A DNA stretch of 64,000 nucleotides, from NCBI GenBank assembly GCA_000091205.1, contig AP006499.2, one strand, 5' to 3'. Source of the DNA: Cyanidioschyzon merolae. Its lineage: Eukaryota. Below are positions 1,848-56,382 of this stretch, piece after piece. The notes beneath the pieces were generated by a model. That model searched no databases. It saw only the letters and a list, made by a program, of their open reading frames with translations, and was not told where the DNA came from. A program made the position numbers and the translations under genes. Numbering within the stretch: position 1 is the first letter of the stretch; each line of letters opens with the position of its first letter.

Positions 1848-4800
1848 TCACGTAGATGAGCGCATCGCAGGTGCGCCCTCACCTAGAAGTAGACGGAGCT
1901 GCTCAAAGTCGCTTGGATCGTTGACAAGCCTTTGCAGCTCCGTCTGAATTTGTTGGAGTTCTACGGAATGCTGCGGTTGGCGGGCAATCAGAGCAAGACG
2001 GTAGTATCGTTTCATCTGTTGGAAAATTAGCGAAAAGGTACGATCACCGACTCGAGCACGAATGCGTTCCATGATCGTTTTGCTGATCATTTGAGAGCCA
2101 CGTGCAAGAGCTGCATCCTTGTGCACAGCGGATACAGCTCGACGCTCGGCTTTCGCCTTCCAGACCAAGCCTGGTTCAGCGGTCGACGTCGACGAGACGG
2201 CCGTGGCGGCCACGTTGGTCTCGCGGAGTCTTTTCGACGACTGCGATGACAACGATAGCGAGCGCGCTCGCCGTGCATCGCATGTTCCCGTTTTTCCTGC
2301 CTGATCATACTCTTGGGACTGTCGCCCGATCATAGCTGCATGTTGCGCCATCGACTGGAGACGCGGTTGCTCGTCCTTGCTCGCCTGAAACGGATCAACA
2401 GGTGTGCGAACTGGCGGTACCGAGGTTGCGAGTTCCAACTGCGCCGCTGAGAGTTGGCGAATTCGCTCCGAGTGCCAGAAGCCGCACAGATTCGACATGA
2501 AGGTTCCAAAGCGCTCAAAAACTTGGATATTGTGCGTTGCTCGCGGATCCGCATCCGATGAAGCTGCACTCAGCCAGCGCGGGAGGTCTCTCAGATGAGC
2601 TCGAAACCGCTCGTCACAGAGGAGAATCGCTCCAAAGTCCTGCGCGTGACGAATCACCCGACCCATGGCCTGGTTTGCTGCTCGTAGGCATTGCTGCACG
2701 TACCAGAGGCGACCAGTGATCGTCTTGCCGTGATCCCTGAGGTGAAGCGCCTGACGTTCCAGATAATCGCGTTTCAGGATGATGCGCGGATCTGTTGTCG
2801 AAGGAAACGGAAGACCGACTAGAATCACCGTTCGTCCAAAGTCGTCAGCGAAATCGATCCCCTCGCCGGTGCGTCCTCGACAAACCGCGAAGAGGCATGC
2901 GTCGCGGCCGCTGGAAATCCATTGGCGGTAGGCGTCCACGGTTTGCCGAGAGGCGTCAGCGTCGCGAGGCTCCATAAAGATGCGCTTCACGGCATTGAGA
3001 CGATCCCAGACAGTCGCCTGGGTAGGCTGACGGCCACGATGAGCGGGATTCAACGGGTTGTTGTGATGAAAGGCGCCCGTCTGCCAGATTTCTACGAACC
3101 GAGCGAGCAGCACATAGGACGGAAAGAAGACGAGCATGCCACGCGGTGAGACGCGAGCGATATTGACCAGCGCGCTACCGAGATCCGAGATATACTCGCG
3201 ATTGTGTCGATTCGCATACGAGCTGTTCAGTTGAATATCCCGCGGCCCTTTGGTAAGGATCCCCGCGAATACCTGAGTTGCTGGATCGACGACATGGGAG
3301 TTCTGGAGACGAACTGGAAACGAAGCACCCATCTCCGATGCAACGGATTCTAGGGGGCTCAGCGTCCCTGAGGTCAACAGCACTGCATGTGCATTCGAGG
3401 TGGCTCGACGGAGCGCGAGACCCGGCCAAAGGCACCAGAATGAGAGCGTGTATCCTGTAGAGGAGCGATGTTCACGTGCGGATTGGTGTACGTACTTGCC
3501 AGAGGCAGCCTCTGCCGCTGCGGTGCCGCTCAAGGGTGGGCGCTGCTGCGACGGTGTTTGCCTCGGCCATCCGACACCATCGTACGCGGAGGGCGTCTTC
3601 AGACGACTGGGATTCATCGCCTGGTGGGTAGTACCAGCGGTGCCCTTCGCCGGCTCGTGCACACAGATCGCGAACGTGGACGCCGTCTCTGGTTTCCCGA
3701 ACAGACGAGATAGCTCCAGCACCTGACTGAGCTGCTCTAGCGCGTGCACCTGAGCGGCCCATGCTGCCGCTGACGTGCGCTGTGTAGTCCGTACTTGTCG
3801 GTGAAGCAGCCCCGTATAAGGATCACCCTGATCCCGTGTCTCTATGGCATCTGCTTCCGGCGCCTGTGAATGATCGAGCGCAGCAGCGGTCCCGTCAGGG
3901 AATTGTTGCCGCAATTGTGTGAGTGCACGGATCGCCGCTTCTACGCCGCGGAGCAGACGCTCATACGCTTCCTCGGTGAGCGTTGCGTCTTTCGAAGAGC
4001 ACTGCAAAAATGATTCAATAGCATGACCAGGAAGCACCACGCCATCAATCCCTTCAATCCGACGCCGCTGCCCAAAACACACCGTGCCTCCATTCTCTGC
4101 ACCAGGGCGCGCATGAGACGCCTTGGCGTCCGCCTGGGAAACCAGCGATATGCGCTCTTCAAGTGCGACCATGATTTCGAGCAGAGCGTGGAGATCAGAC
4201 GCGTGTAGCGCGGGCTCCGTGTTGGATCCTTCGCGCCCGTCGCGGTTCAGAAGACCCGAGGATAGCGCACTTGCCAATTGCTGAATAGCGCTGACGCACC
4301 TTTGACGCTCCGCAGCGGTAAAATCGAAGCTGAGACTATCACAGCAGATGCTCTCCAGATTGTGTGCCTCGTCGCCGATGATGATATCGCCTTCGACGCT
4401 GAGCCCCAGCGAACGCCGACACTTGCCATCGAACAAATAATTGTAGGGCATGAAGATGATTTCGGCCTCGGCAGATGCCTCACGACTGAGAAAATAAGGG
4501 CACATCGCATGCTGATGCCCGTACGCTGCCAAGTCCTCGAGGTCTCGTGGGCGCCGTCCCGGAAGCGCTAGCGTCGAGGTGCTGTCGACGGCGATGAAGA
4601 AAAAGTCATCGCCAACCTCCTTGAACTTTTGTTCGGCATTCAGATAAAAGCTGCAGCGTCGCTCTTTAGTCAACTGGGTACAACGAACGTTCTGCATTGT
4701 GGCGTTTTCGAGTCGAGATACAACCGGGTGGACGCAGAGGTGCTGGCGGGAGCCGAGGACCACGGTCCGAACGCTCGCACCATATGCGGTTCTGCTGAGC

Positions 4801-5276: not shown

Positions 5277-5699
5277 CCAAGCGAAACGCCCCGCTCGAGG
5301 ACAGACGTATACGTCCGTCTGAGCGCTGCATGCTGAATGGCGCCAAGTCACTGCACTGCGACTGGTATCGGTACCCTGGGGCCTTGCAAGCACCCTGGTG
5401 CTGAGTTTGAAGGCTTGTTTTCGGGGCTTTTATAGCAAAGGAACATGCTATGGGAAATGTGACGATCGTCCATAGAATAGTTTGGGAGCGTTCTCTTTCA
5501 GTCGGGAAACTGCTGGCGTCTTCCCGCACCCGTGTGTGCGGTGAGTGGACCGCTGGTGGCGCTTTGTAGACGTCGCTACGCCTATGCGAGGGCGTTTCGG
5601 GGTGACTCGAGGATCGCTTCTCTTCGACGCGTTTTCCTCATGGAGCAGAGGCATGGTAATGTGTCCGTTTTTAAGGTTCAGCGCACCGTTGGAAAGACA

Positions 5700-7376
5700 T
5701 CACCAGCACCACCACCGCCTATCACACGGACGATGCCGCCCGTGTACAGTAGTGGCGAGAAACCCGCCCTGGACAAAACGTCTCCAACCGAGGTGCAGAC
5801 GTCTCCTAGTCCTTTTGGACCGGCCATCTACTACTGCTTCCAACGTTGTCTCATATAGTTCGACTTTGAGAGGTTGTCCCAAAAAATTCTCTCTTGTCGA
5901 CTCTGGAGGTCTCGTCTCCAGCACCGCACATTTCCTTGTATTGATTGCGGCGTTAAAGTCTCGGTTCACGAATTCCATACGTTTCTCCCCGTTGGTAGTT
6001 GTGCTTACTAGTGCGCCTAGTCCTCGAACTTTCGCCCTCCTTTCCGTTTGCTCCTCCGTCAGCGCTCCGTACTTTTTTATATCCTCAGGGGTCCGTTGGC
6101 ACTTTTCCATCTCCACGCTCTGAAGTGTACACCCCAGTTCATGGTGTGTATGCAATGCTCGGAACTCATCTACAGGTATTGTAACAAAACACCTCGCGCA
6201 CTCCTTGGATGTTCTTGTCGTTGGAGCTGGCGTAGTTCCTTTTTGTATCTTCCGGCGCCCTGCTCCATATGCCACTACGAGCCTCTGATTTTCATCCTCT
6301 TTCAGGGCACTCAACTCATTGAAAAAGTCCGCGAACGCCCGCTGCCTCCCACCGTACAGATTCATCCGCAAACGAGCCCGCCGGGGCTTGGTATACTCCT
6401 CCCACAGCGCATCCCAATGGGCAACACGAACTTCCATGAATTTCCGAAAAGCTTCAAAGTCGGCTCTTCGGCTGGTCACCTCGCTCAAAGCCTCCAGGTG
6501 ATCCTTCATTCCTGCGTTCCACTTCTCAGTTTTCTTCCTCGCATTCATCATTCCCGATTCTCGACAGTATCTCGCTCTCGAGAACCTCAAAAGACGCATG
6601 TCTTTCTGACGGAAGTTGCCGTCAGCACCATCTTCCGCACGCTTCGGTGCTGCGATGGTGATGATATTTGTGTTTCGGGGGTCCGCGCCAACGACAAGGT
6701 CGTTATCCTGCACTTTCTGCGTCTCAAGACTCGCCTCCTTCTTTTCTTCATGCTTCATCGCGTCAACGACAAGCACGTTATCCTGCACTTTCTGCGTCGC
6801 ATGTTCCGCCTCCTTCTCATCTTCATACTTCGTCACGCCAACGACAAGGTCGTTATCCTCCATCTCCTGCATCGCAGGATCCCCCTCTTTGTTTTCTTCA
6901 TCCTTCGTCACGGGCGCAGCCGAGGGCCGAACTGGACGATCTTTCTTCAACCGCCGATAGTGTATACACAAGGCTACTCCATCGGTTTCGATCAACCCAG
7001 TGAACCACTTTTGCTCGCTCACTCTCAGACGTTTGAAATTGAAGATATTCTTCCAGTACGTCTCCCGGTTTTCGCCGGTGAAGTCCTCCCTGCTAACATT
7101 GAACTCCGGACTGATCTCCTTCATGATGCCGTAGAGGACGCCGGAATCGATAGTCACGAAATGTGACTTGATATTGCACATTGGAACGATGTTGAAGCGC
7201 TTCCCCATTAGGAAAGCCTTCCGTCTCTCCCACTCTTCATTTTTGTCCTCACTTAGCTCCACCTCTGCCTTGCGTTCGAGTTCTCGGTCCAGAAACACAA
7301 AATAGCGCAGGATGAGGCGATAGTATCTTTCCTTATCTTTTTTATCTCTGATATCTTGTCTGCTGGATTCGCCCAC
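5700..7376 (-). CDS. TnpB/Fanzor-like RNA-guided-endonuclease-family protein (RuvC-like nuclease with Zn-finger); probably the 3' exon/major part of a longer gene
   Basis: RuvC-I-like motif [17 protein letters not shown] Cys/His cluster follows: CARCF...HTHHELGC...EKCQ. The RuvC-III hallmark is [15 protein letters not shown] (D-x-NAA-x-N). The N-terminus is K/R-rich ([13 protein letters not shown]-like). Upstream ORFs on the same strand in alternating frames (7253-7633, 7618-7812, 7870-8181) suggest extra exons or frameshifts. Confidence 0.6.
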
Positions 7377-8200
7377 CCGAGTACCGCACGGTGCTCTTGT
7401 ATAACCGCACGGATTACAGAAGCTTCATTCGTGCTGCCGTTTGATATCCTCATGTCCACAAATTCGACCTCATCTTCATATCTGCGATCGTTCGTGATGC
7501 CATTGATAATCGCCCATATCCCCTTGCAAGAGATACCCCCGTACAGCGCAAACACGGCGCGTATCATGAAACGTTCGAGGTTCATTGTCAAAAGGTTCTT
7601 CAGGTTCGTGATATACTTCATCGCTCCGTACATGTAAATACCCCGGTCACCCTTGTATCGAGTACCCTCGAACCCGTAAAAGGGATGTCGTTCGTGGAGC
7701 GCGTGAACCCGCCCATTTTACCCCGCGTTTCCTCTGCACCAAACACCAGGTGCCGAATAAAGGTCTTGTCAAAGAACTCGTCTGGAATCTCGACTGTTTC
7801 CACGTGCGCCACGTCTTCTTACATCTCGCGCACCAAATTCATCAGTCTTGACGACACCTTTATAATACTCTAGGAGTACAGATCGACATGCTGTCTGATG
7901 TCGTCTTGCAACTTTTGCTCATCCGAATCCTCGAGGTGTCCATGAGGGCGGGTTACCACTACCGTCCCGTCATAGTCTCGTGTTTCGTGCAGCTTCTGAC
8001 GCCGGGCCTCCCCTTTTGCTTCCGTGTCTTTTCCTGTTCCTCTGCACTTGGCAGTGTTTCTCTTTTTTTTCTGGCAGCCGGCGACACTGCGCCTCCAGGA
8101 TCCTTCATTTCTATGTCCATAACTTTCCTTTGCTATGTTTTTGAAAAAGAACGCATTTTGAACGCTTCCGTTATAAACCACGTAAAATCACTTGAATACA
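5830..8200 (-). mobile_element. putative Fanzor/TnpB-carrying transposable element (approximate bounds)
   Basis: The TnpB-like ORF lies in an AT-richer island (about 7400-8450). DNA and protein homology to the second copy (53125-53950) ends abruptly near 5830-5865, which would be the putative right end. The left bound is uncertain. Confidence 0.35.
6690..6925 (-). repeat. in-frame coding tandem repeat (~78-81 bp x3) inside the Fanzor-like ORF
   Basis: The DNA unit caacgacaag[g/c][t/a]cgttatcct... recurs at ~6690, 6773 and 6846. It encodes ...[11 protein letters not shown]... three times. The last copy is the RuvC-I strand itself. Confidence 0.7.
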
Positions 8201-8605
8201 CTCATGTGAAGATTGAAACACAATTGAATTTAAAGATTATATTATGCTACGACTTGAACGCAAATACAACTTGTGCGTTAGAGCAATACGCTATTGATAA
8301 GGATCGCGTTTCCCTTCAACGGCGAGGTACGCGTCGTATCTCATACCTGCCTGATCTGAAAGTGGGCTTATCGACTGCGCTATTGAAAAAAAGAACAGAG
8401 ACTAGCCCCTATATAGCAACGAAATAACATTTTCTTCTCCCTTCAACGATAAACGTTAAAAGGCGGGAAAGGTTTCCATTTTGTCGAAACTTTACCTTCT
8501 TGGCGGAAGATCTCGCGAGCCGGACGAGTATGCCTGGCGGGTGCTTCATGCTCCCGCACTAGCGGGTGCCGTAGTGAGATCTTGGCAGCTCGTCCGAAAC
8601 CCAAT

Positions 8606-8888
8606 TTTTATTGGAATAGGACTAGAAGTGGACAGCTCTCATCCAAGTGTCGCCTTGGTCGCAGTGATCGCTTATAGTGACCCTTTGCGCGGCCGCACGC
8701 AGAAGCTCTGTCTGCGATAATTGCTGGCTCCCAGATTGATAACGAAACCTGATCCCGTGTCGCGCAAACCACGCCTCTAGTCGACGCCCCCAGTGGTATG
8801 GCAAAACCTTTCTGTCCCCGTGATGCATCCACACAAGCGGTTTAGGCGCTGTAGCGGGTGCTCAGCGCCGGCACTCGGCACACAATAG
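8606..8888 (+). repeat. ~280-bp dispersed non-coding element, copy 1 (candidate ncRNA gene or TE terminus)
   Basis: About 75% identical over its full length to 42343-42618 in the same orientation. Shared blocks are tttatt..aggactagaagtgg, tcatcca.gtgtcg, tggtcgcag, gctggctcccaga.tgataa, cgacgccc..cag.ggt.tggca and gcgggt.ctca. No protein-level conservation was seen in any frame. Confidence 0.65.
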
Positions 8889-9346
8889 ATCGTAAAAAAA
8901 CTACCCGTACATCCGAGAGACATTATAAATAATGGAACATGGGAGTAGGGTTCTCCAGCATGATGAACGCTCTCTCGATTACCAGTACCCATCCATCCCG
9001 CGATTTTAGATCCACGGTCAACGAAAACGTCTTGTGAGCGGAGAGCGGAGCGCCGCGCGGTACGCGCTCCACCGCGCGCCCGTTGATGATCGCGAGCGCG
9101 CCGGTGCGCCGCGCACTGCACCAACGACCGCACAATGCTCACGTCCGCGTTGGATTGTCTGGGTGTTTGTTTTCTTTGCAGTGACGAGGAGGCATACGGG
9201 TTTGCGCTTACAAGTCTAGCGCTCACCGCAAGCACTGGTGGCTGCGTGAGGGCGCAGACGAAATCGGGTGGTTTTTTACCGACAGAAGCGCATTTGATCG
9301 GGGCTGGAACGCTGCGCTGCTTGCGTGTGCTCGTGCCGCTCGTACG

Positions 9347-39285: not shown

Positions 39286-40578
39286 TCAGTGCTCGACGTG
39301 AGCGCTCCCATGATGTATTGTGCACACAGCGCTTTCTGCGCTCGCCGGTGGACGCCAAGACTTGGCCATGATCCAGCGATAGACCCGAGTGGGTATCCAG
39401 ACAGCCACTGCCATCACAATGTGATCCATGATCCATGGAAACCCGTAATGGTCGCCCCTGCGTAAGAGTGCCCATATAATATGATCTGCTGCTGCATCTG
39501 GCGAGAGACAGCACGGTTTCCAGTGCCGCTGATGGGCGATCGCAGGCGTGTCTACGAAACCTGGACAAACTGTGACTAATCGTACCCTGTGATCGCCAGC
39601 GATCCGAAGCTCCATGCGGAGGCTCTCTGTGAGGTAATTGAGCGCGGCCTTGGTTGCCCCGTAGAGCGCTCCACCGGGTAACGCCCGATACGCTGCCAGC
39701 GATGACACGACAACCACATCTAGGTTCTCGACAAGTGCAGAGGACTCGTTGGGTGCCGATGCAATGATGTCCTTTGTGGATGCTTGTTGATCGCTCGGAC
39801 GACACGAGGCGGGAATTTTCGTTTGAAGGAGGTCTCGAAAGGCATCTACGATCTTGAGTCGGGCTCGATGCTCGGGGATACCACTGCTACTCGGACTGGG
39901 CTTCGATTTCCGGGCACGAGATCGGGTTCTGTTGACGTCTACGCTGCAGTTGTGTCCTGATGCTTTGGTCGGTTCGTTCGGGGCAGAGAGCAGCTCCCGA
40001 AGAAGCCGATGAAGGATACGCGCTGGTGCCCACAGGTTGGTCTCGAGTACTTCCCGCAGCGTGTCGAGGCTCGTGTCCACAAAGAGACATCCATTCTGGT
40101 TCACGCCGGCGTTCAGAATAACAACGGAAACACCGAGTTGAAGAACACGCTGCAGGACGTGGTCCAGCTCGTTGCCACTTGCCCGCAAGTTCACTGGTTC
40201 GATGACCACAGCCGGTTTGTCCATTTCCCGGGTGTCCGTCGATGCGGTTGCTTTACCCGCGAGTGCCTCTGATACCTGGGCAGCGAGCGACTCTAGCAAC
40301 TCGACGCGTCGTGCACTGACGACGACCCGAGCCCCGTAAAAGACAGCGAGTCGAAAGGCTAGCGCCCTCCCGATCCCAGACGAAGCACCAGTGACCCAAA
40401 CGACTCGTCCTCTTAGGCTCGCTCGACGTGCCCGCAGGTCGTAGTGAACGCTAACTCGCCATAGAACCCAACAAAACGCAAAGATCGCGACGAGTGTCCA
40501 GATGAGCGTCATCGCCGCCAACGTCGTTACCCGACGAAACAGTGGGAGCGCGAAACAGCCGAAACTGTGGAGCAGCAC
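39286..40578 (-). CDS. short-chain dehydrogenase/reductase (SDR) with an N-terminal membrane anchor and a ~90-aa low-complexity insertion
   Basis: VVWVTGASSGIGRALA (TGxxxGxG), NAGV, ...VVVVSSLAAYRALPGGALYGATKAALNYL (YxxxK) and a TM helix MTLIWTLVAIFAFCWVLW. Confidence 0.75.
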   Translation of the reverse strand: MLLHSFGCFALPLFRRVTTLAAMTLIWTLVAIFAFCWVLWRVSVHYDLRARRASLRGRVVWVTGASSGIGRALAFRLAVFYGARVVVSARRVELLESLAAQVSEALAGKATASTDTREMDKPAVVIEPVNLRASGNELDHVLQRVLQLGVSVVILNAGVNQNGCLFVDTSLDTLREVLETNLWAPARILHRLLRELLSAPNEPTKASGHNCSVDVNRTRSRARKSKPSPSSSGIPEHRARLKIVDAFRDLLQTKIPASCRPSDQQASTKDIIASAPNESSALVENLDVVVVSSLAAYRALPGGALYGATKAALNYLTESLRMELRIAGDHRVRLVTVCPGFVDTPAIAHQRHWKPCCLSPDAAADHIIWALLRRGDHYGFPWIMDHIVMAVAVWIPTRVYRWIMAKSWRPPASAESAVCTIHHGSAHVEH

Positions 40579-42342
40579 GCGAGCTCGTAGAAACAGCTTC
40601 TCCCACCGACTACCGGTATCCGAGACACTGCAAGCCGTTCCGCGGGCGTAGCAAGCCGGTACCCATACCTAGTCGCTGCAACAACTGAAGCTGCTCGCTC
40701 TGATACCAGATCCAGCAAAGGGATGACGTGTTGCACTGGGATGCCTCAAGCGCCCTATTCCCGACGCGGGTATCCATGCACCGGGGCTTGCTGCTGGAGC
40801 AAAAAGTCGTTTACAGACTATCATATCATAGAAGGCTCCAAAGAGAGCACCATCTCGCTTTATGATCTTTGACGGCAGTGAAGCTTTGCAACCAGCGGGG
40901 TGCAGTCCGCTCCGATTTGATGATTTTTTGCTGGTGGACAGAAAGTGTGAACCTCTTGCGCACTTGAGTATGGTCTCCTCGCGTTACATAGGCAGCCCGG
41001 TGTGAAACATGAGGTCCTGAACGGGCTCCCAAGCACTGTCACACTCGCCAATGGACACACTCGGCTTCCGAGGTACCGCGCATGCCTCACACTGGGCGAC
41101 ATCGAAACGTCGCCGAAAACGAACCCCTCGAGGAACGGTTTTTGGTACTCGCCCCAGAGTCGATGCATCCAGCTGGGCGTGCCGGGAGGCGCAACTGCAG
41201 CCGCAACCGCCAACGTCTATTGGAGGTCATCCTGAACCCGTTCACGGGAATCCACTGGACCATGCAAGGCCCGCGAGATGAAGCAGGTTCGGTGTATAAA
41301 CTGCGCGGTTCTAGGCGTTGAGGAGCGCTCGCGCCCAGTACCCAGGCACCCGAATGATTTTCCAACCTTCTACTCGGGCCTGTCACGAGCCCCGATGAAA
41401 TCTACGGTAAACTGGATGAATTGATGGCATCCTACGGCTGATGGCATTCGAGCCATAGCTCCATGTGGCCTTGGCGTCTCCGAGTCCGGGACTCGTAGAC
41501 GTGCCTCAGGGCGCTCTTTAGATGCGAATGATAGAAAGCATGTGCTTGCGCGTACACCTGTCGAGAACGGTCCTTTTCGGTTCGTGACTCTCGTTCAATA
41601 AAGGCCGCCGAATAAGAAGCGACATGCAAGCAGCCTCGTGCTCAACAGAGTTTCGGCCGCTGCTACAGCTACTGCTGCTGCTGCACCACGCGAACTTTGA
41701 GCATCGGTGTTTCGTGCACTACTGACGATGCTCTGCGTCTTCACTGCATAAGCCTTAACGACACTATCCATGCTGCTGTTTGAGCTAGGCCCCAGCATCT
41801 CCAAACACGAGCAGATGGGTAGGGGCGTCAAGCACACGTGCACAGCACACTCTCTCTCGAACGTAATTTCCAATGAGATGCCGCCCTTGGTGCTTTAAAC
41901 GAATGCTGCCACATTCCATTTTAAGAGTTATCGACTTGTCTTTCCCATTCGTCCCTCGCAGTGGTAGGATCGATGATGCATCTGACCACTTGATTTGATC
42001 GGAGATTCCAGAGGATCGTGGACAGCAGGCAGCGCGGCTCTCGGAATGCCTGTACGGATATAGTTCAAAGAATTCCATCAAGCCGAGCGAGGGGTAAACG
42101 AGGACCCATCGAGTGAGAGGGACCAAAGGCCGGTGAAAAAGAAACAGAAACTGACCACTAAATACCCATGACCCGATGACATTTTCCCCGCGTCTGTGGA
42201 AAGCGTTGCAAAGGGCGAAGTTTTCCGTTTTTTCGAAGGTTTACCGCCTAGGTGCAAGTTCCTGCGAGCTGAACGAGTCCACTGAGCAGTTGCTCTGTGC
42301 GGCTCGGCAGTGGCGAGGCCGTAGCAACACGTCCACAAAGCA

Positions 42343-42618
42343 TTTATTCTAGGACTAGAAGTGGGTAGCGTTCATCCACGTGTCGTCATGGTCGCAGCGG
42401 TTTCCGAGTCTATCGCTTTGTGCTGCCGCATGTTGTAGGTCTGTCTGCAGAGCTTGCCGGCTCCCAGAATGATAATTAGCCGTGATTCCGTGTCAGGCGT
42501 AGGATTCTGCGAGCCGACGCCCTCAGCGGTGTGGCAGAGCCATTCTGTCTCCATGCAGCATCCGTACCAGCGGTATAAGCACCAGTGCGGGTACTCACAA
42601 TAATCACTCGGCGCATAG
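42343..42618 (+). repeat. ~280-bp dispersed non-coding element, copy 2
   Basis: See 8606-8888: ...tttattctaggactagaagtgggtagcgttcatccacgtgtcgtcatggtcgcag...gctcccagaatgataattagccgtgattccgtgtc... Confidence 0.65.
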
Positions 42619-42967
42619 TAGAACGTACAAAATGACCCGTATATCCGAAAGAGAGTTTCCGTCATGGAACTTAAAGATAGCATGTATCATGATGGACGCT
42701 TTCCCGAATGCCATGATTCATCGCGCAACCTCAGATCCCTGCTCAGTGGACGAATTTTTTGTCATCGAAAAAAGGATTCGCAGATGCCGCTACGAGTTGC
42801 AGCCATTGCCAAGTACAGCCTCGAAAGGCATTGTGCAACTGAACCTAACAGCAGCTTCAGGACGTGTCTTTCTTAAAGACGAACGCTTCGGAATCCAGCA
42901 CGATTTTCGAACCCCATAACGCGTCTGCTTTCTGGGGTTATTAGGAGCTTGCGTTCGCCAGGTTGCG

Positions 42968-44548
42968 GTGCGTTTCGACATGCGTGCTGCACTCGCTTTC
43001 CGAGCGCCGTGTCGGGGACTTGTCGTTCCGTCCTGGGAAGCAACTCGAGGTCGGTGTTTGATTTCGCCACGAAAGTGCCCGTTATCGTTGAGTCGTCGAA
43101 GTGTGGCAGGTTTGGTGAGAACGACTCGCCGTCGGGGTCTGTACGGCTGCACGACGCCCGTGGCACAGTCTCGGGACGGTGCCACTGCACCGACGAGCGC
43201 TCCGGTCTACCCCGGAGTGGACGGCAAACCGAATGTCATTCAAGTCCTGGAATCGAGAGGCCTCATTGACGCGGTGACCTCTACTGATGTGTACGCGGTC
43301 TGTGCCCGACCGGTAGCAGTGTACGTCGGCTTCGATCCGACGGCGGACTCGCTCCACATAGGTAACCTCCTGGGTCTACTGGTTCTGCGTTGGTTCCAAA
43401 AACTGGGGCATCGCCCTGTGGCTATCATTGGCGGTGCAACTGCCCGTATCGGTGACCCGTCAGGCAAGAGCGTTGAACGACCGCTCCTTGCTGCGAGTGT
43501 CATTGAAGAGAATGCCGCACGAATCGCTGAAAACCTGCGGCAAGTGCTGGATTTCAGCGGGGATTCTAGTTCAACGACGGAGCCGCTGGTTCTCAACAAT
43601 TACGACTGGCTTGGCAACATGAGATTACTCGACTTTTTGCGTGACGTAGGGAAGCTCGCGCGAGTCGGGACAATGCTGAGCAAGGAATCCGTTCGTCTTC
43701 GGATGCAGAGCGAAGAGGGTCTCTCATTCACCGAGTTTACGTACCAGCTGCTGCAGGGATACGATTTTGCGTATCTCTATAAAAATCACCAAGTCCTGCT
43801 GCAGGCAGGGGGCTCGGACCAATGGGGCAACATTGTGGCTGGACTCGAGCTCACTCGTAAACTTTACGGGGGCACTGTGCATGGTCTGACGTTTCCACTC
43901 CTTACCAGCAAGGATGGCAAAAAGTTGGGAAAGACAGAGAAGGGCGCTGTATGGCTTTCGCCACAGCGCCTGAGCCCGTACGAATTCTACCAATATCTTG
44001 TCAAAGTAGCAGATGATGATGTTTGCAATTATCTGCGGAAGCTCACATTCCTGCCTCTGGAACAAATCGACGCCCTCGAAAACGACATGCGAAACTCGGA
44101 ACGGAGCGGCTACCAAGCAAATACAGCCCAGAAACTCTTGGCTATGGAAGTCACTCGCATAGTTCACGGCGACAAAGGCGTCGAGACGGCATTAGCTGCC
44201 ACCGCGGTCGCTGCACCCGGGCACGTACCCGGCGGTGAACACACCAACGGTAGCACGCGCTTACGAGCTGATGTGTTAGAAGCGGTCTCCAGCAGTCTAC
44301 CGGGTGCGACGCTTCCCCGCACTGCGCTCGTCGGTGTGCCACTGGTCGATGTTATGGTTCGAGCGGGTCTCCAGAAGAGTAAGGGAGAGGCGCGGCGCCT
44401 CATTGCGAACGGTGGTGCCTACGTCAATGACGAAAAAGTGTCCGACAGTGGGAGAACCATCGAAGCAACAGATTTAATTGAGGGACGACTGCTTCTGCTA
44501 GCGGCTGGCAAGAAAAACAAGATGCTCGTTCGGGTGAGCGATACCTAG
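42968..44548 (+). CDS. tyrosyl-tRNA synthetase, bacterial/organellar type, with an N-terminal targeting peptide
   Basis: The HIGH motif is DSLHIGNLLGL and the KMSKS motif is KKLGKTEKG. GGSDQWGNI is also present. The C-terminal S4 domain reads LVDVMVRAGLQKSKGEARRLIANGGAYVND. The first ~75 aa are R/S-rich. Confidence 0.9.
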   Translation: MRFDMRAALAFRAPCRGLVVPSWEATRGRCLISPRKCPLSLSRRSVAGLVRTTRRRGLYGCTTPVAQSRDGATAPTSAPVYPGVDGKPNVIQVLESRGLIDAVTSTDVYAVCARPVAVYVGFDPTADSLHIGNLLGLLVLRWFQKLGHRPVAIIGGATARIGDPSGKSVERPLLAASVIEENAARIAENLRQVLDFSGDSSSTTEPLVLNNYDWLGNMRLLDFLRDVGKLARVGTMLSKESVRLRMQSEEGLSFTEFTYQLLQGYDFAYLYKNHQVLLQAGGSDQWGNIVAGLELTRKLYGGTVHGLTFPLLTSKDGKKLGKTEKGAVWLSPQRLSPYEFYQYLVKVADDDVCNYLRKLTFLPLEQIDALENDMRNSERSGYQANTAQKLLAMEVTRIVHGDKGVETALAATAVAAPGHVPGGEHTNGSTRLRADVLEAVSSSLPGATLPRTALVGVPLVDVMVRAGLQKSKGEARRLIANGGAYVNDEKVSDSGRTIEATDLIEGRLLLLAAGKKNKMLVRVSDT

Positions 44549-52924: not shown

Positions 52925-53950
52925 TCAAAATTGAGACACGAAGCGACAGGGTGCCAGAAAGCTACGGAACACACCGCGGTTCGTGGAGCGTATCTCCGGG
53001 CGCGCTCGGGCGACACGCGGGGATACGCGACGGTCGTGCAAAATGAATATCCACTCACAGACGCCTCGGGGTCTTTCTTTTTTTGACCAGCCCCCTGCTA
53101 TCGGTATCAGCTTCTCCTTGTAAACCTTGAGCCTGAGAGGTATTCCAATAAAGTTCGATGTCGTCAGCTCCTCAGGTCTCGTCTGCAGCACCGCACATTG
53201 TCTGATATTGATAGCAGCGTTAAAGTACTGCTGTACGAACTCCGCGCGCTTCGTACCGCTGCTTGATCTCACCGTGGCGGGGGTTCCTCGAACTCGTGCC
53301 TTTTGTTCCATTTGGCGCTTTGTCGGCTCTCTGTACTTCCGATCGGCGAAGCGCTCCGCTGGCTTAGCTCCGTTTGGACCGTTTGGAGAGGGCACCCCAG
53401 CTCATCCCTTAATTTTCTAAAATGAATACACTTGTTTATGCCGCTAGGTGAAGACCTTCCTGGAGCGAGAAGGACTTGGGGAAGAAAGACGACATATGTC
53501 TCCGTGGAACCATGTGGTAAACGCTTCAGTGCTTCGCCCGCTGGTGCCATCATTACGTTGCAAGATAGAAATTACTCTTTCGATCGGGTTGAGCCATGGA
53601 GGATACGTAGTAATGAAAAGCAGCTCTACTCCCCGGTAGAATCGGCAAAAACTCGATGGTTAGGGGAATGGTCAATGGCCATGTTCTGTAATTGAAGGTC
53701 GTCACCAGATGTCATGGGAAACGACTTCAGTGCTTCGAAGAAGTCGGGGCTGTTGTACGAGCCTTCGCTACGAGCGAAACGGATGCCGCCAAATGAATCC
53801 ATTGTAGCTAGAACAGATGATGATGTTGTCGTTGTCTTCAAGTTCGATTGCACATACAACGTGCTCCCTTTTCTGCGAGTACCCATATACGCTCCCGAGG
53901 TTGCGTCCGAAGGAAATCTCATCGACTGAAAAAACAAACCGATATCCTTT
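52925..53950 (-). pseudogene. decayed second copy of the TnpB/Fanzor-like gene (frameshifted; RuvC-III Asp lost)
   Basis: ORF 52925-53395 reads EFVQQYFNAAINIRQCAVLQTRPEELTTSNFIGIPLRLKVYKEKL. Copy 1 has [46 protein letters not shown] at the same place. The upstream frame 53269-53553 carries RDELGCPLQTVQTELSQRS, matching [19 protein letters not shown]. It sits in an AT-rich island at 53400-54500. DNA homology between the copies ends near 53125. Confidence 0.5.
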
Positions 53951-55263: not shown

Positions 55264-56382
55264 TCAACGTTTGGATCCCGTGTCGGTTGTTTTGGCGGTT
55301 CGGACAGCTCCTTTCGATCCAGTACCTACGATGCTGCGCATCATTTGGTGGTGCTCGATCAACCACTCGTTAGAATGCTCCGCGGCTGCAGCTGTTTCTC
55401 CAGACCTGCTCCTTGCGTCATTCCGCGGCGGTAGTCTGGACCTTCGCATTTTCTGCATTTGTTGCTTCAGCACTTGAATAACCTTGCGATTCAGCGGCGT
55501 ATCGACGCTAATCAGGATTGCAACCAGCATGACTACTGTGCTTGCGACGACGGCGAGGATTGTGAACAGCAAACGATACTCCCGCCCGGATTCGGCTGGG
55601 GTTATTTCAACAACGCCATCCAGCACTTTGATGCTATACCCGAGCATCGAGTTGCGATCCAGGAAAGCCGCAATCGATCCCTCCGGTTGCGTGGACACCA
55701 GTGAGGCGAGCTGCTCTGGGCGGAACCCCAGTTCGATTAAGAGCTCCCGATTTTTCCACTGTCGTTCGAGGAAAACCGTCAAGCGGAGGATGCAAGGTCC
55801 GGGCGGGAATGCAGCATGCACGGCCAGTGGATAGACGAAGGAGAGCTCTTGTCCTCGGGTTAGCGTTCGATTCACCAGCAAGAACGACATGTTTTGGAGA
55901 TGCGCTGACGGGTTTTGTATCGCGTGCAACGCGCCGATAGCACCAACAACCAGATAGGGTTCATGTTCCGTCACATTATCCGCACTATTTCGAGCGTCTT
56001 CAGCGTCCTGGTGTGCCACGGTTACAAGGACGTACTTCGAATCGCCCGCGGCAAGCTTCACGGCGGTTTCTGCTTCGTGTCCAGCCTTGGCGGTCGAATT
56101 GTGTTCCGCACCGCCAACGAACGCGTAAGCGTATTCTATATCTTCCGGAGCGTCAGGCGGGTCCGTAAGAGGGTGCACCTTGGAGATCAGGTGCCGCCGA
56201 ACGAACTTGTCGAAGACACTGAGCACCTCAAGCGCGGTGCTCTCCGAGCTGTCGTCACTTGCTTTTTCGTCACCTCTCACGGATTTCGAGCCCAAAACGA
56301 GCAGACACCGGGTTGAAACCAGTAGCGTACATAGTACGACGGCAAGGAAAACAGTCTTCCCTCCGGATGATACCCTCATCAT
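55264..56382 (-). CDS. hypothetical type-I membrane / secreted protein (signal peptide + C-terminal TM)
   Basis: The N-terminus MMRVSSGGKTVFLAVVLCTLLVSTRCLLVLG looks like a signal peptide. The C-terminal TM helix is LLFTILAVVASTVVMLVAILISV, followed by a basic tail. No domain was recognised. Confidence 0.4.
   Translation of the reverse strand: MMRVSSGGKTVFLAVVLCTLLVSTRCLLVLGSKSVRGDEKASDDSSESTALEVLSVFDKFVRRHLISKVHPLTDPPDAPEDIEYAYAFVGGAEHNSTAKAGHEAETAVKLAAGDSKYVLVTVAHQDAEDARNSADNVTEHEPYLVVGAIGALHAIQNPSAHLQNMSFLLVNRTLTRGQELSFVYPLAVHAAFPPGPCILRLTVFLERQWKNRELLIELGFRPEQLASLVSTQPEGSIAAFLDRNSMLGYSIKVLDGVVEITPAESGREYRLLFTILAVVASTVVMLVAILISVDTPLNRKVIQVLKQQMQKMRRSRLPPRNDARSRSGETAAAAEHSNEWLIEHHQMMRSIVGTGSKGAVRTAKTTDTGSKR

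Follow-up and report, generated by a model that had tools for sequence, protein, structure and literature searches.

Does the intergenic stretch between two genes of Cyanidioschyzon merolae 10D hold a working gene for an RNA-guided nuclease? The question was raised by a first-pass annotation of a 64,000-nt stretch of contig AP006499.2 (assembly GCA_000091205.1), hereafter called the window, which singled out a 558-aa open reading frame (ORF) on the minus strand as a near-intact TnpB/Fanzor-like RuvC nuclease gene and noted three further ORFs upstream on the same strand at 7253-8181. The 558-aa ORF, the protein strings quoted from it and the three upstream ORFs are all present. They lie in a repeat at approximately 5698-9040 that is inserted between two consecutively numbered, divergently transcribed genes, one for a Rad3-like helicase (BAM82147.1) and one for a glycerol-3-phosphate transporter (BAM82148.1); the 10D annotation assigns no gene to this interval. 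Five ORFs of the window match C. merolae 10D proteins exactly. Coordinates below are those of the window, and all features of the element are on the minus strand.

The limits of the whole repeat (5698..9040), a CMe-1A-like composite of approximately 3.34 kb, were determined using the blastn coverage profile and alignments of the ends. Coverage by 80 related loci increases at ~9045 and drops steeply at ~5700. The GC content of 5699-9045 is 0.50, whereas the two flanks have 0.58 and 0.57 and the window as a whole 0.55, in agreement with the AT-richer island described in the first pass. The element is a composite of a non-coding module of approximately 650 bp and a core of approximately 2.7 kb that formerly coded for a Fanzor1 protein approximately 750 aa long. 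The 5' module (8383..9040, ~650 bp), which resembles TE-N2_CMe, begins CGCTCACAAGACGTTTTCGTTGAC and meets the core via an oligo-T run at 8383-8396. By blastn coverage it is present in just 20-35 of approximately 80 copies, compared with 60-80 for the core. Junction alignments place it in inverted orientation beside the core in other subfamilies, and a solo copy of the TE-N2-like module is located at 42307-42765 of the window.

The Fanzor1 core unit (5698..8382, ~2.7 kb) corresponds to the homology common to nearly all copies, which begins at ~8320-8380 and stops at ~5699-5745. Its parts follow in the order 5' palindrome, leader of ~200-360 nt, decayed Fanzor1 coding region, conserved 3' region and terminal hairpin. 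At the 5' start of the core (8360..8382), the inner-boundary alignment showed a small palindrome in other copies (GCGCTC-GGT-GAGCGC or GCGCG-GTCGATA-CGCGC) that is degraded in the window copy. A "conserved flank", GCGATTCTTTTTTT, seen at many 5' junctions was considered as an independent target motif and rejected; it is mostly the reverse complement of the 5' start of the Fanzor core, abutting an inverted TE-N2-like module. No terminal inverted repeats (TIRs) were seen in the alignments of the element ends, and no transposase is encoded in the 3.34 kb, which is made up of the Fanzor coding region and non-coding parts. In scans against Pfam and NCBIfam, the four same-strand ORFs showed no other domains.

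The element belongs to a large family carried, as in the C. merolae 10D genome, by a multicopy mobile element of a eukaryote. At least 235 paralogous stretches were found in related metagenome contigs, with flanks that are unrelated beyond sharp boundaries, and 3,484 cluster representatives were obtained at E≤1e-3 from a library of 1.8 billion proteins, so that the 558-aa ORF is not a chance ORF. Protein identity among the copies is 58-81%, and in 48 of 56 copies the longest ATG-initiated ORF is shorter than 500 aa. A copy of the P0003 type, with a continuous ORF of 752 aa, occurs at 99% identity in two metagenomes. In the RuvC region of the family copies, conservation is higher at the first and second codon positions than at the third, a pattern in the aligned sequences that argues for a past protein function of the family.

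The intact relative P0003 (752 aa) was used as the reference for calling lesions in the window copy. The 558-aa ORF (5700..7376), which has a GTG start and lies in frame -3, corresponds by tblastn and the family alignment to P0003 residues 239-752 (75% identity over 514 aa), that is, to part of the REC/WED region, RuvC and a TNB-like region, followed by a read-through tail of 26 residues. The remainder of the protein is encoded upstream in pieces: tblastn located a middle segment (7337..7717; P0003 residues 114-240) in a frame that differs from that of the 558-aa ORF, and an N-terminal segment (7723..8016; residues 14-111) in a third frame. The probable true N-terminus, which is K/R-rich and NLS-like, lies in yet another frame at 8013..8174 and was located using P0081, whose residues 1-51 match in frame -3 (41% identity, E 7e-7) and residues 29-146 in frame -2. 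Two frameshifts, at ~7337-7343 (about 7340) and ~7717-7723 (about 7720), are certain, and a third at ~8013-8082 is probable from the tblastn matches. Three-frame translation against P0003 revealed in-frame stops at 7870-7872 and 7819-7821, where P0003 has Lys and Tyr, respectively. The usual family stop TAG has changed to CAG (5769..5771), as determined from 3'-end alignments and translation, and this accounts for the odd C-terminal tail of the 558-aa ORF. Substitutions are found at six invariant or nearly invariant positions of the family, namely a Gly to Arg change at a position invariant in 55 of 55 members and five others.

With two to three frameshifts, two in-frame stops, a lost stop and changes at such residues, the copy can no longer be called near-intact, and a single uninterrupted full-length frame (~600-750 aa) is absent from it. 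The upstream ORFs had been attributed to spliceosomal introns or frameshifts, of which only the frameshifts survive: neighbouring tblastn segments, among them the matches in frames -1 and -3, either lie within 6 nt of each other or overlap by 7 nt, which is too tight for an intron, and the intact relatives P0003, P0075, P0076 and P0093 are single continuous ORFs. An orthologous copy from a metagenome is 98.8% identical to the window copy over 3,451 nt with 0 gaps, so every indel is held in common and the frameshifts are real and shared; since both frameshifts and stops recur in this independent assembly, an assembly error is unlikely. The intact relatives begin with K/R-rich stretches, and the "NLS-like N-terminus" assigned earlier to the 558-aa ORF proved to be internal sequence behind an apparent start made by a frameshift, the real K/R-rich N-terminus being located at ~8013-8174. 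A 75-bp tandem repeat of 3.0 copies was detected in-frame at 6686..6912 with Tandem Repeats Finder. It encodes a 25-aa unit (...DNDLVVxxxKHEExKEA...TQKVQ) inserted immediately before RuvC-I, and the number of units is not the same in the window copy as in P0002, P0003 and P0012. In the structural model this region is predicted to form a disordered insertion (pLDDT <50). We conclude that the window copy makes no functional nuclease and that the 558-aa ORF is its largest surviving fragment; what the first pass had expected of the gene "if active" is inapplicable to a disrupted copy.

The fragment nevertheless retains the residues of a catalytic triad. In the RuvC-I motif D-P-R (6675..6683) the Asp, D232 (6681-6683), is kept, while R234 (6675-6677) occupies the position of the Gly that is invariant in 55/55 members. 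The rearranged RuvC-II (6165..6266) comprises G371 (6264-6266, in AYGAG) and an alternative Glu, E404 (6165-6167, in VDEFRAL), and the RuvC-III Asp, D473 (5958..5960, in NRDFNAAIN), is conserved in 54/55 relatives. D232, E404 and D473 are thus the retained triad residues of the window ORF. In family numbering these are D484, E656 and D725, conserved in 55/55, 55/55 and 54/55 members, and they align with D383, E541 and D606 of SpuFz1. At the canonical position of the RuvC-II Glu the family has G623 (AYGAG), invariant in 55/55, and the equally invariant E656 follows 33 residues downstream in VDEFRT; the published Fanzor pattern is Gly or Pro in place of the canonical Glu and an alternative Glu approximately 45 residues away. 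The motifs DPG, DEFRTS and NRDxNAAxN line up with the SpuFz1 active site as defined by experiment, and the proposal of a rearranged catalytic site was therefore sound. The Cys/His "zinc-binding cluster" fared differently. Its strings are present in the ORF, but "CARC" reads CARR in other copies, of the 55 clade members only 5 keep a CxxC after DEFRT and only 7 the Cys pair that precedes NRD, and the zinc-finger positions of the C. merolae subfamily read THHELGC and RGLLALV. To judge from these alignments, the clade looks to have a degenerate TNB domain, which would be subgroup variation and not exclusion from Fanzor1. As the CCCC zinc finger is absent from the clade, even intact members may differ mechanistically.

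Whether the likeness to Fanzor is itself genuine had to be settled, for the ORF might belong to an unrelated repeat-encoded family (the uncharacterised DUF8286) with RuvC-like motifs arisen by chance. Direct Pfam and NCBIfam scans of the 558-aa ORF and the three upstream ORFs gave nothing significant; the sole precomputed Pfam tag on the ORF was a weak DUF8286 (PF26935), for which a literature search found nothing; a single-sequence PDB search with the ORF returned only SpuFz1, at E=0.15; and a 10-member profile had no PDB match. These results are all compatible with a spurious resemblance. The Fanzor1 link emerged only once distant members had been obtained from the exhaustive search of 1.8 billion proteins. 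A profile of 55 members, to which the window ORF is 75-98% identical, was compared with 177,635 PDB sequences and matched PpFz1 (E 2.2e-28), SpuFz1 (3.2e-19) and GtFz1 (1.4e-13). At E≤1 its matches were exclusively Fanzor1 chains, with the active-site motifs in register and no TnpB or Fanzor2 structure among them. Foldseek gave only six matches at E≤1e-3, all of them Fanzor1 structures, and the predicted fold resembles the WED/REC/RuvC/TNB architecture of solved Fanzor1 proteins. Although independent fold searches likewise give only Fanzor1, the structural model is modest (pLDDT 57, pTM 0.38; TM-scores 0.23-0.35), so that the fold evidence is supportive and not decisive. The Pfam domain Cas12f1-like_TNB is matched by 15/55 members. 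In a further word-indexed homolog search, the deep profile recovered for the most part close relatives seen before, and none of the hits was a named protein. The chance of a spurious likeness is accordingly next to nil, and the claim of a TnpB/Fanzor-type RuvC nuclease homolog can be narrowed to Fanzor1. An origin from TnpB of IS200/IS605 or from a Fanzor2/IS607-like element was rejected, since no TnpA (Y1 HUH or serine recombinase) accompanies the coding region and the profile matched neither a TnpB nor a Fanzor2 structure at E≤1.

Given that the ORF derives from Fanzor1, two readings would still grant it a function. In one, the Fanzor gene at this locus is close to intact and perhaps active, and the upstream ORFs are its exons, separated by spliceosomal introns or joined by programmed frameshifting. 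The three acidic catalytic residues are kept, the N-terminal part that the 558-aa ORF lacks is indeed found in the upstream ORFs, and some copies of the family are intact (Bao & Jurka 2013, PMC3627910). Two stops nevertheless interrupt the homologous coding sequence in frame, the terminal stop is lost, and an Arg replaces the invariant Gly two residues past the RuvC-I Asp. No intron fits between segments that abut or overlap, introns are in any case very few in C. merolae, the intact relatives are uninterrupted, and the locus carries no gene annotation in 10D. An active gene is for these reasons highly improbable. Scarcely better placed is the reading in which the host has exapted the 558-aa ORF, as a Fanzor derivative truncated at its N-terminus, for a function such as DNA/RNA binding or regulation between the divergent genes without nuclease activity. 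It draws on the ORF being open both in 10D and in the 98.8%-identical metagenome strain, and on the 10 non-synonymous and 7 synonymous codon differences between the two, a ratio below the ~3:1 of strict neutrality by a difference that is not significant and from numbers too few to interpret. Such counts, and an ORF open in two strains, are compatible with weak constraint. The strains are too close for more, since at 1.2% divergence the survival of the ORF is unremarkable. The ORF also begins at a GTG created by a frameshift, with no conserved start, and runs past the normal stop into terminal-repeat sequence; it has the six substituted family positions, is missing some 240 residues from the N-terminus, which form part of the RNA/DNA-binding lobe of Fanzor1, and is unannotated, while many paralogs show similar random decay. 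We therefore regard exaptation as very unlikely. The region is, with little doubt, a decayed, non-functional CMe-1A copy of a Fanzor1 element, lying in the intergenic space between the helicase and transporter genes.

A conserved 3' region of approximately 250 nt (5698..5950) overlaps the end of the ORF and has a mean column identity of 77% in 35 non-redundant copies. By analogy with characterised Fanzor systems it is a candidate scaffold region for a guide RNA (omega RNA). Codon periodicity disappears in the last 240-150 nt, a signal that is non-specific because the N-terminal segments are also without periodicity. RNAalifold on the 3' 270 nt of 35 copies gave almost no consensus (6 weak pairs, -0.9 kcal/mol). 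In four hand-drawn helices, 77.4% of cells were paired, compared with a shuffled mean of 76.9% (80/500 shuffles as high), and 11 pairs changed on both sides, compared with 7.4 (18/500 shuffles), which is not convincing. At E≤1, Rfam returned only a chance-level L20_leader (21 bits, compared with a gathering score of 58.7). Folding of independent copies revealed a 3'-terminal palindrome or hairpin of approximately 40 nt (5705..5744): 13 of 16 copies form a single hairpin at this position, the lowest z-score being -6.2, and its stem is preserved in two sequence versions, TTCGA/TCGAA and TTTTC/GAAAG. The hairpin is degraded in the window copy (-16.6 kcal/mol, z -1.8). A TIR-less layout with a hairpin of ~40 nt at the 3' end and a small palindrome at the 5' end recalls single-strand (HUH-type) transposons; the C. 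merolae genome is not known to contain a transposase. A Replitron/HUH lead was dropped, as the published Replitron paper reports that red algae have none of these proteins.

A Fanzor1 element was already known in C. merolae. Bao & Jurka (Mobile DNA, 2013; PMC3627910) described CMe-1A as a Fanzor1 element of ~3 kb without TIRs, present in ~150 copies that are ~80% identical to the consensus, and identified its 5' 635 bp as a separate element, TE-N2_CMe. The element in the window fits CMe-1A as described in that paper. It shares with CMe-1A (protein "CMe-1") the organism, the size (~3 kb published, 3.34 kb here), the lack of TIRs, the high copy number (~150 published, at least 235 across related metagenomes here), old and diverged copies of which few are intact (~80% to the consensus published, 58-81% protein identity here) and a 5' part of ~635-650 bp that behaves as a separate repeat. 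Comparison with the published description found no features contradicting this identity. The present analysis adds the exact lesions of the copy, the ~40-nt 3' hairpin, the core 5' palindrome, the oligo-T at module junctions and the lack of a CCCC zinc finger. With the family described from the same genome in 2013, the "poorly sampled lineage" of the first pass is not one.

The result has little discovery value, and its useful outcome is a correction. As the window copy is a pseudogene, the 558-aa ORF is unsuitable as a candidate programmable nuclease, and work on C. merolae Fanzor would be better begun from intact paralogs such as P0003. Minor points worth recording are that the zinc finger is degenerate in this clade, that a TIR-less element ends in a hairpin and that the TE-N2-like module is found in either orientation. 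There is a small but not trivial chance that the CMe-1 lineage retains active members in natural Cyanidioschyzon populations, that is, Fanzor1 nucleases of a thermo-acidophilic alga that work without a CCCC zinc finger, on a TIR-less element with a 3' hairpin and a 5' palindrome. Were this true, the family would supply an RNA-guided nuclease adapted to heat and acid and would shed light on the movement of "orphan" Fanzor elements. By homology with SpuFz1, GtFz1 and PpFz1, intact family members would be RNA-guided double-strand DNA endonucleases, cutting via a RuvC site with the rearranged D-E-D triad. The 3' end of the element would give rise to the guide RNA, whose guide portion would extend into the flanking DNA, and the nuclease would aid persistence or spread of the element rather than catalyse its transposition.

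Among known systems, TnpB of IS200/IS605 (e.g. ISDra2) would share the RuvC chemistry of the C. merolae family, and the "TnpB2" subgroup has the same alternative-Glu arrangement. The C. merolae element is also loosely similar in style to IS200/IS605, with no TIRs, no recognised TSDs and palindromes near its ends, whereas its protein is approximately twice as long as bacterial and archaeal TnpB, has a large N-terminal extension and a eukaryotic host, and is not accompanied by TnpA. The biochemistry and structures of Fanzor1 date from 2023-2024 and allow a closer comparison. Guillardia theta GtFz1 (PDB 9CER-9CET) is matched by the family profile at E 1.4e-13. Parasitella parasitica PpFz1 (PDB 9CF0-9CF3) carries an FRI domain, an insertion of ~100 aa in RuvC, which the C. 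merolae proteins do not have; what they carry instead is the variable 25-aa tandem repeat before RuvC-I. SpuFz1 of Spizellomyces punctatus (PDB 8GKH, 9CEU-9CEZ) has 30-nt inverted repeats on its elements, which the C. merolae element is without, and a CCCC zinc finger, which is mostly absent from the C. merolae clade. It has N385 where the C. merolae family has an invariant Gly, and its omega RNA and CATA TAM are experimentally defined, whereas the C. merolae family is known here from sequence. Sequence identity between the two in structural alignments is 13-15%, yet SpuFz1 is the best Foldseek match (E 3e-7), is matched by the profile at E 3.2e-19 over ~355 profile positions and has its RuvC-II rearranged in the same way. 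The elements of both organisms are alike in being multicopy and transposon-borne, with many copies that are degraded or without an ORF.

The 558-aa ORF (5700-7376, minus strand, GTG start), which carries all of the motifs quoted in the first-pass annotation, and the three ORFs reported upstream of it on the same strand (7253-7633, 7618-7812 and 7870-8181) were all present in the sequence. The locus is also an AT-richer island, as had been stated, with a GC content of 0.50 at 5699-9045, below that of both flanks (0.58 and 0.57) and of the window as a whole (0.55). Five large ORFs of the window match C. merolae 10D proteins exactly; these are encoded on a chromosome of 1,232,258 bp and carry CYME_CMQ locus tags. 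In C. merolae 10D it is flanked by a Rad3-like helicase gene (BAM82147.1; 1848-5276, minus strand) and a glycerol-3-phosphate transporter gene (BAM82148.1; 9347-11611, plus strand), and since these accessions are consecutive, no gene is annotated between them. The exact 558-aa product was absent from a collection of 15 billion proteins. The element has a GC skew of -0.17 to -0.26, and a 372-aa antisense ORF (6048-7166, plus strand) opposite the Fanzor coding region is most likely an artefact of this strand-skewed composition and not a gene.

Direct scans of single sequences against Pfam and NCBIfam gave no significant match, and in a single-sequence search the top PDB match of the 558-aa ORF was SpuFz1, with E=0.15. 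All 95 close relatives of the ORF were metagenomic, no NCBI-source sequence was among the homologs found, and a 10-member profile had no matches in the PDB. When 1.84 billion representatives were searched exhaustively with an HMM, 3,484 of them were assigned to the family at E<=1e-3. A deep profile built from 55 diverse members, whose identity to the reference was 24-40%, matched exactly three PDB sequences, all of them Fanzor1: Parasitella PpFz1 (2.2e-28), Spizellomyces SpuFz1 (3.2e-19), and Guillardia GtFz1 (1.4e-13). Individually, 15 of the 55 members matched the Pfam family Cas12f1-like_TNB (best E 9.8e-9). Absence of a profile match, one of the two outcomes named beforehand as refuting the TnpB/Fanzor-like nuclease, is clearly not the case here, and the Fanzor family assignment is right. 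As to the other, a predicted fold lacking an RNase-H-like RuvC core, the structure model matched Fanzor1 structures only, but its quality was too low to confirm the RuvC core geometry independently.

The ligands of the SpuFz1 metal site, D383, N385, E541 and D606 (Saito et al.), were placed by counting through the HMM alignment, with an offset of 394 for the MBP-fusion chain, and correspond to D484, G486, E656 (the E in VDEFRT) and D725 (the D in NRD) in family numbering. D484, G486, G623, E656, R724, N727 and N731 were invariant in all 55 members, and D725 was found in 54. In the rearrangement described for Fanzors, the canonical RuvC-II Glu is replaced by Gly or Pro and an alternative Glu lies approximately 45 residues downstream (Jiang et al.); the counterpart here is G623, in AYGAG, with E656 33 residues downstream. 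Because these two residues correspond to the published pattern, the earlier inference of a rearranged catalytic site is correct. The window ORF itself keeps the catalytic D232, E404 and D473.

The intact relative P0003, a single continuous ORF of 752 aa, maps onto the window as three minus-strand pieces in three frames: residues 14-111 at 8016-7723, 114-240 at 7717-7337, and 239-752 at 7343-5877. Either introns or frameshifts had been suggested for the upstream ORFs; since the coding pieces abut or overlap, they are separated by frameshifts and there are no introns. A third frame change is probable at approximately 8013-8082. Two in-frame stops (7870-7872 and 7819-7821, minus strand) take the place of a Lys and a Tyr in P0003, respectively, and the usual stop has been lost through a TAG to CAG change at 5769-5771 (minus strand), which accounts for the odd C-terminal tail of the 558-aa ORF. 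The invariant Gly two residues past the RuvC-I Asp is replaced by Arg, and five further substitutions (W to R, T to A, L to G, I to T, and G to R) fall at nearly invariant positions. The start of the ORF, read earlier as a Lys/Arg-rich, NLS-like N-terminus, is internal sequence, the K/R-rich N-terminus of the family lying upstream in another frame. An independently assembled orthologous metagenome locus (L035/L002), with neighbouring genes as in the window, aligns with the window copy over 3,451 nt at 98.8% identity and without gaps, indicating that these lesions are real and older than the strain split. The two copies differ by 10 non-synonymous and 7 synonymous changes, too small a number for interpretation. 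The gene that the first-pass annotation considered near-intact and possibly active is, with these lesions, a pseudogenised transposon copy without prospect of activity.

Decay is common in the family, as the longest ATG-ORF was below 500 aa in 48 of 56 copies; three long ORFs were found, one of which (L018) is partly out of frame. Codon position 3 was less conserved than positions 1 and 2 throughout the RuvC region, and therefore the source copies evolved under protein-level selection. A second CMe-1 (Fanzor1) copy in the window is a 3' fragment at 53058-53338 (minus strand), located between a 5'-nucleotidase gene (BAM82159.1; 51198-52841) and an ORF at 55264-56382, and it contains the last 66 aa of the protein, 57% identical to P0003, together with part of the conserved 3' region. 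On several metagenome contigs (L047, with 3' ends at 3338 and 7277, L046, L041/L042, L063, L059, L043/L050 and L073), two Fanzor elements, or an element and a 3'-end fragment, lie head to tail with a spacing of approximately 3.4-3.9 kb, possibly as tandem or nested insertions.

Homology to 80 related loci begins at approximately 9040 and stops sharply at approximately 5698. The core alone (5698 to ~8382) is common to most copies, while a separate 5' module of approximately 650 bp (8383-9040, minus strand) occurs in a subset, is inverted in other subfamilies, and is also found solo. This TE-N2-like module adjoins the core in either orientation, depending on the subfamily, and always via an oligo-T/oligo-A run (8383-8396 in the window); the junction is approximately 340 bp upstream of the Fanzor ORF in L032, L025, L078, L027, L056, L016 and other loci. 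This arrangement points to two separate elements that share a target junction or target one another. The solo copy of this ~650-bp TE-N2_CMe-like module is located in the window at 42307-42765 (minus strand), between ORFs at 39286-40578 and 42968-44548. It begins ATGACAAAAAATTCG directly after an oligo-T run, and shares 68-74% identity with the 5' portions of composite elements found at L045, L080 and L051. Within the coding region, 75-bp units, each encoding 25 aa in frame, are repeated in tandem directly before the RuvC-I strand (6686-6912, minus strand); the region is predicted to be disordered, and the number of units varies among paralogs, being different in each of the window copy, P0002, P0003 and P0012.

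The core starts with a small palindrome and ends with a hairpin of approximately 40 nt (5705-5744, minus strand; also L017:7275-7314 and other loci). The hairpin formed in 13 of 16 independent copies, with z-scores down to -6.2, and its stem is preserved in two sequence versions, TTCGA/TCGAA and TTTTC/GAAAG; the best-preserved palindrome gives an 18-bp hairpin of -28 kcal/mol (z -6.2). No TIRs were seen at the element ends, and this combination of a 3' hairpin, a small 5' palindrome and no TIRs recalls hairpin-ended single-strand transposons, although no transposase is known. On the model of Fanzor1 and TnpB, a guide RNA would be expected to originate at the element's 3' end, where the terminal ~250 nt show good conservation and a fading of codon periodicity; however, RNAalifold gave essentially no consensus structure for this conserved region, explicit helices in it were no better than shuffle controls, and Rfam gave no match.

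The CCCC zinc finger common to SpuFz1 and ISDra2 TnpB has mostly been lost by this Fanzor1 clade (3,484 representatives, E<=1e-3), with the SpuFz1-type Cys pairs kept by only 5 and 7 of 55 members. The Cys/His zinc cluster read earlier in the window copy is not supported, and its CARC is CARR in relatives. The only precomputed Pfam label of the clade is the uncharacterised DUF8286 (PF26935), which for this reason appears to cover Fanzor1 sequence. The lineage had been thought poorly sampled, but Bao & Jurka (2013, PMC3627910) had already described one Fanzor1 family in C. merolae, CMe-1A, with approximately 150 copies of ~3 kb that are ~80% identical to the consensus, no TIRs, undetermined TSDs, a few intact copies, and a 5' 635 bp corresponding to TE-N2_CMe, itself present in approximately 70 copies. 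Of the later papers searched, only one names both Fanzor and Cyanidioschyzon, and it does not concern this element. The window element agrees with the published description of CMe-1A on every listed point, and is most likely a copy of this transposon family already known from the C. merolae genome.
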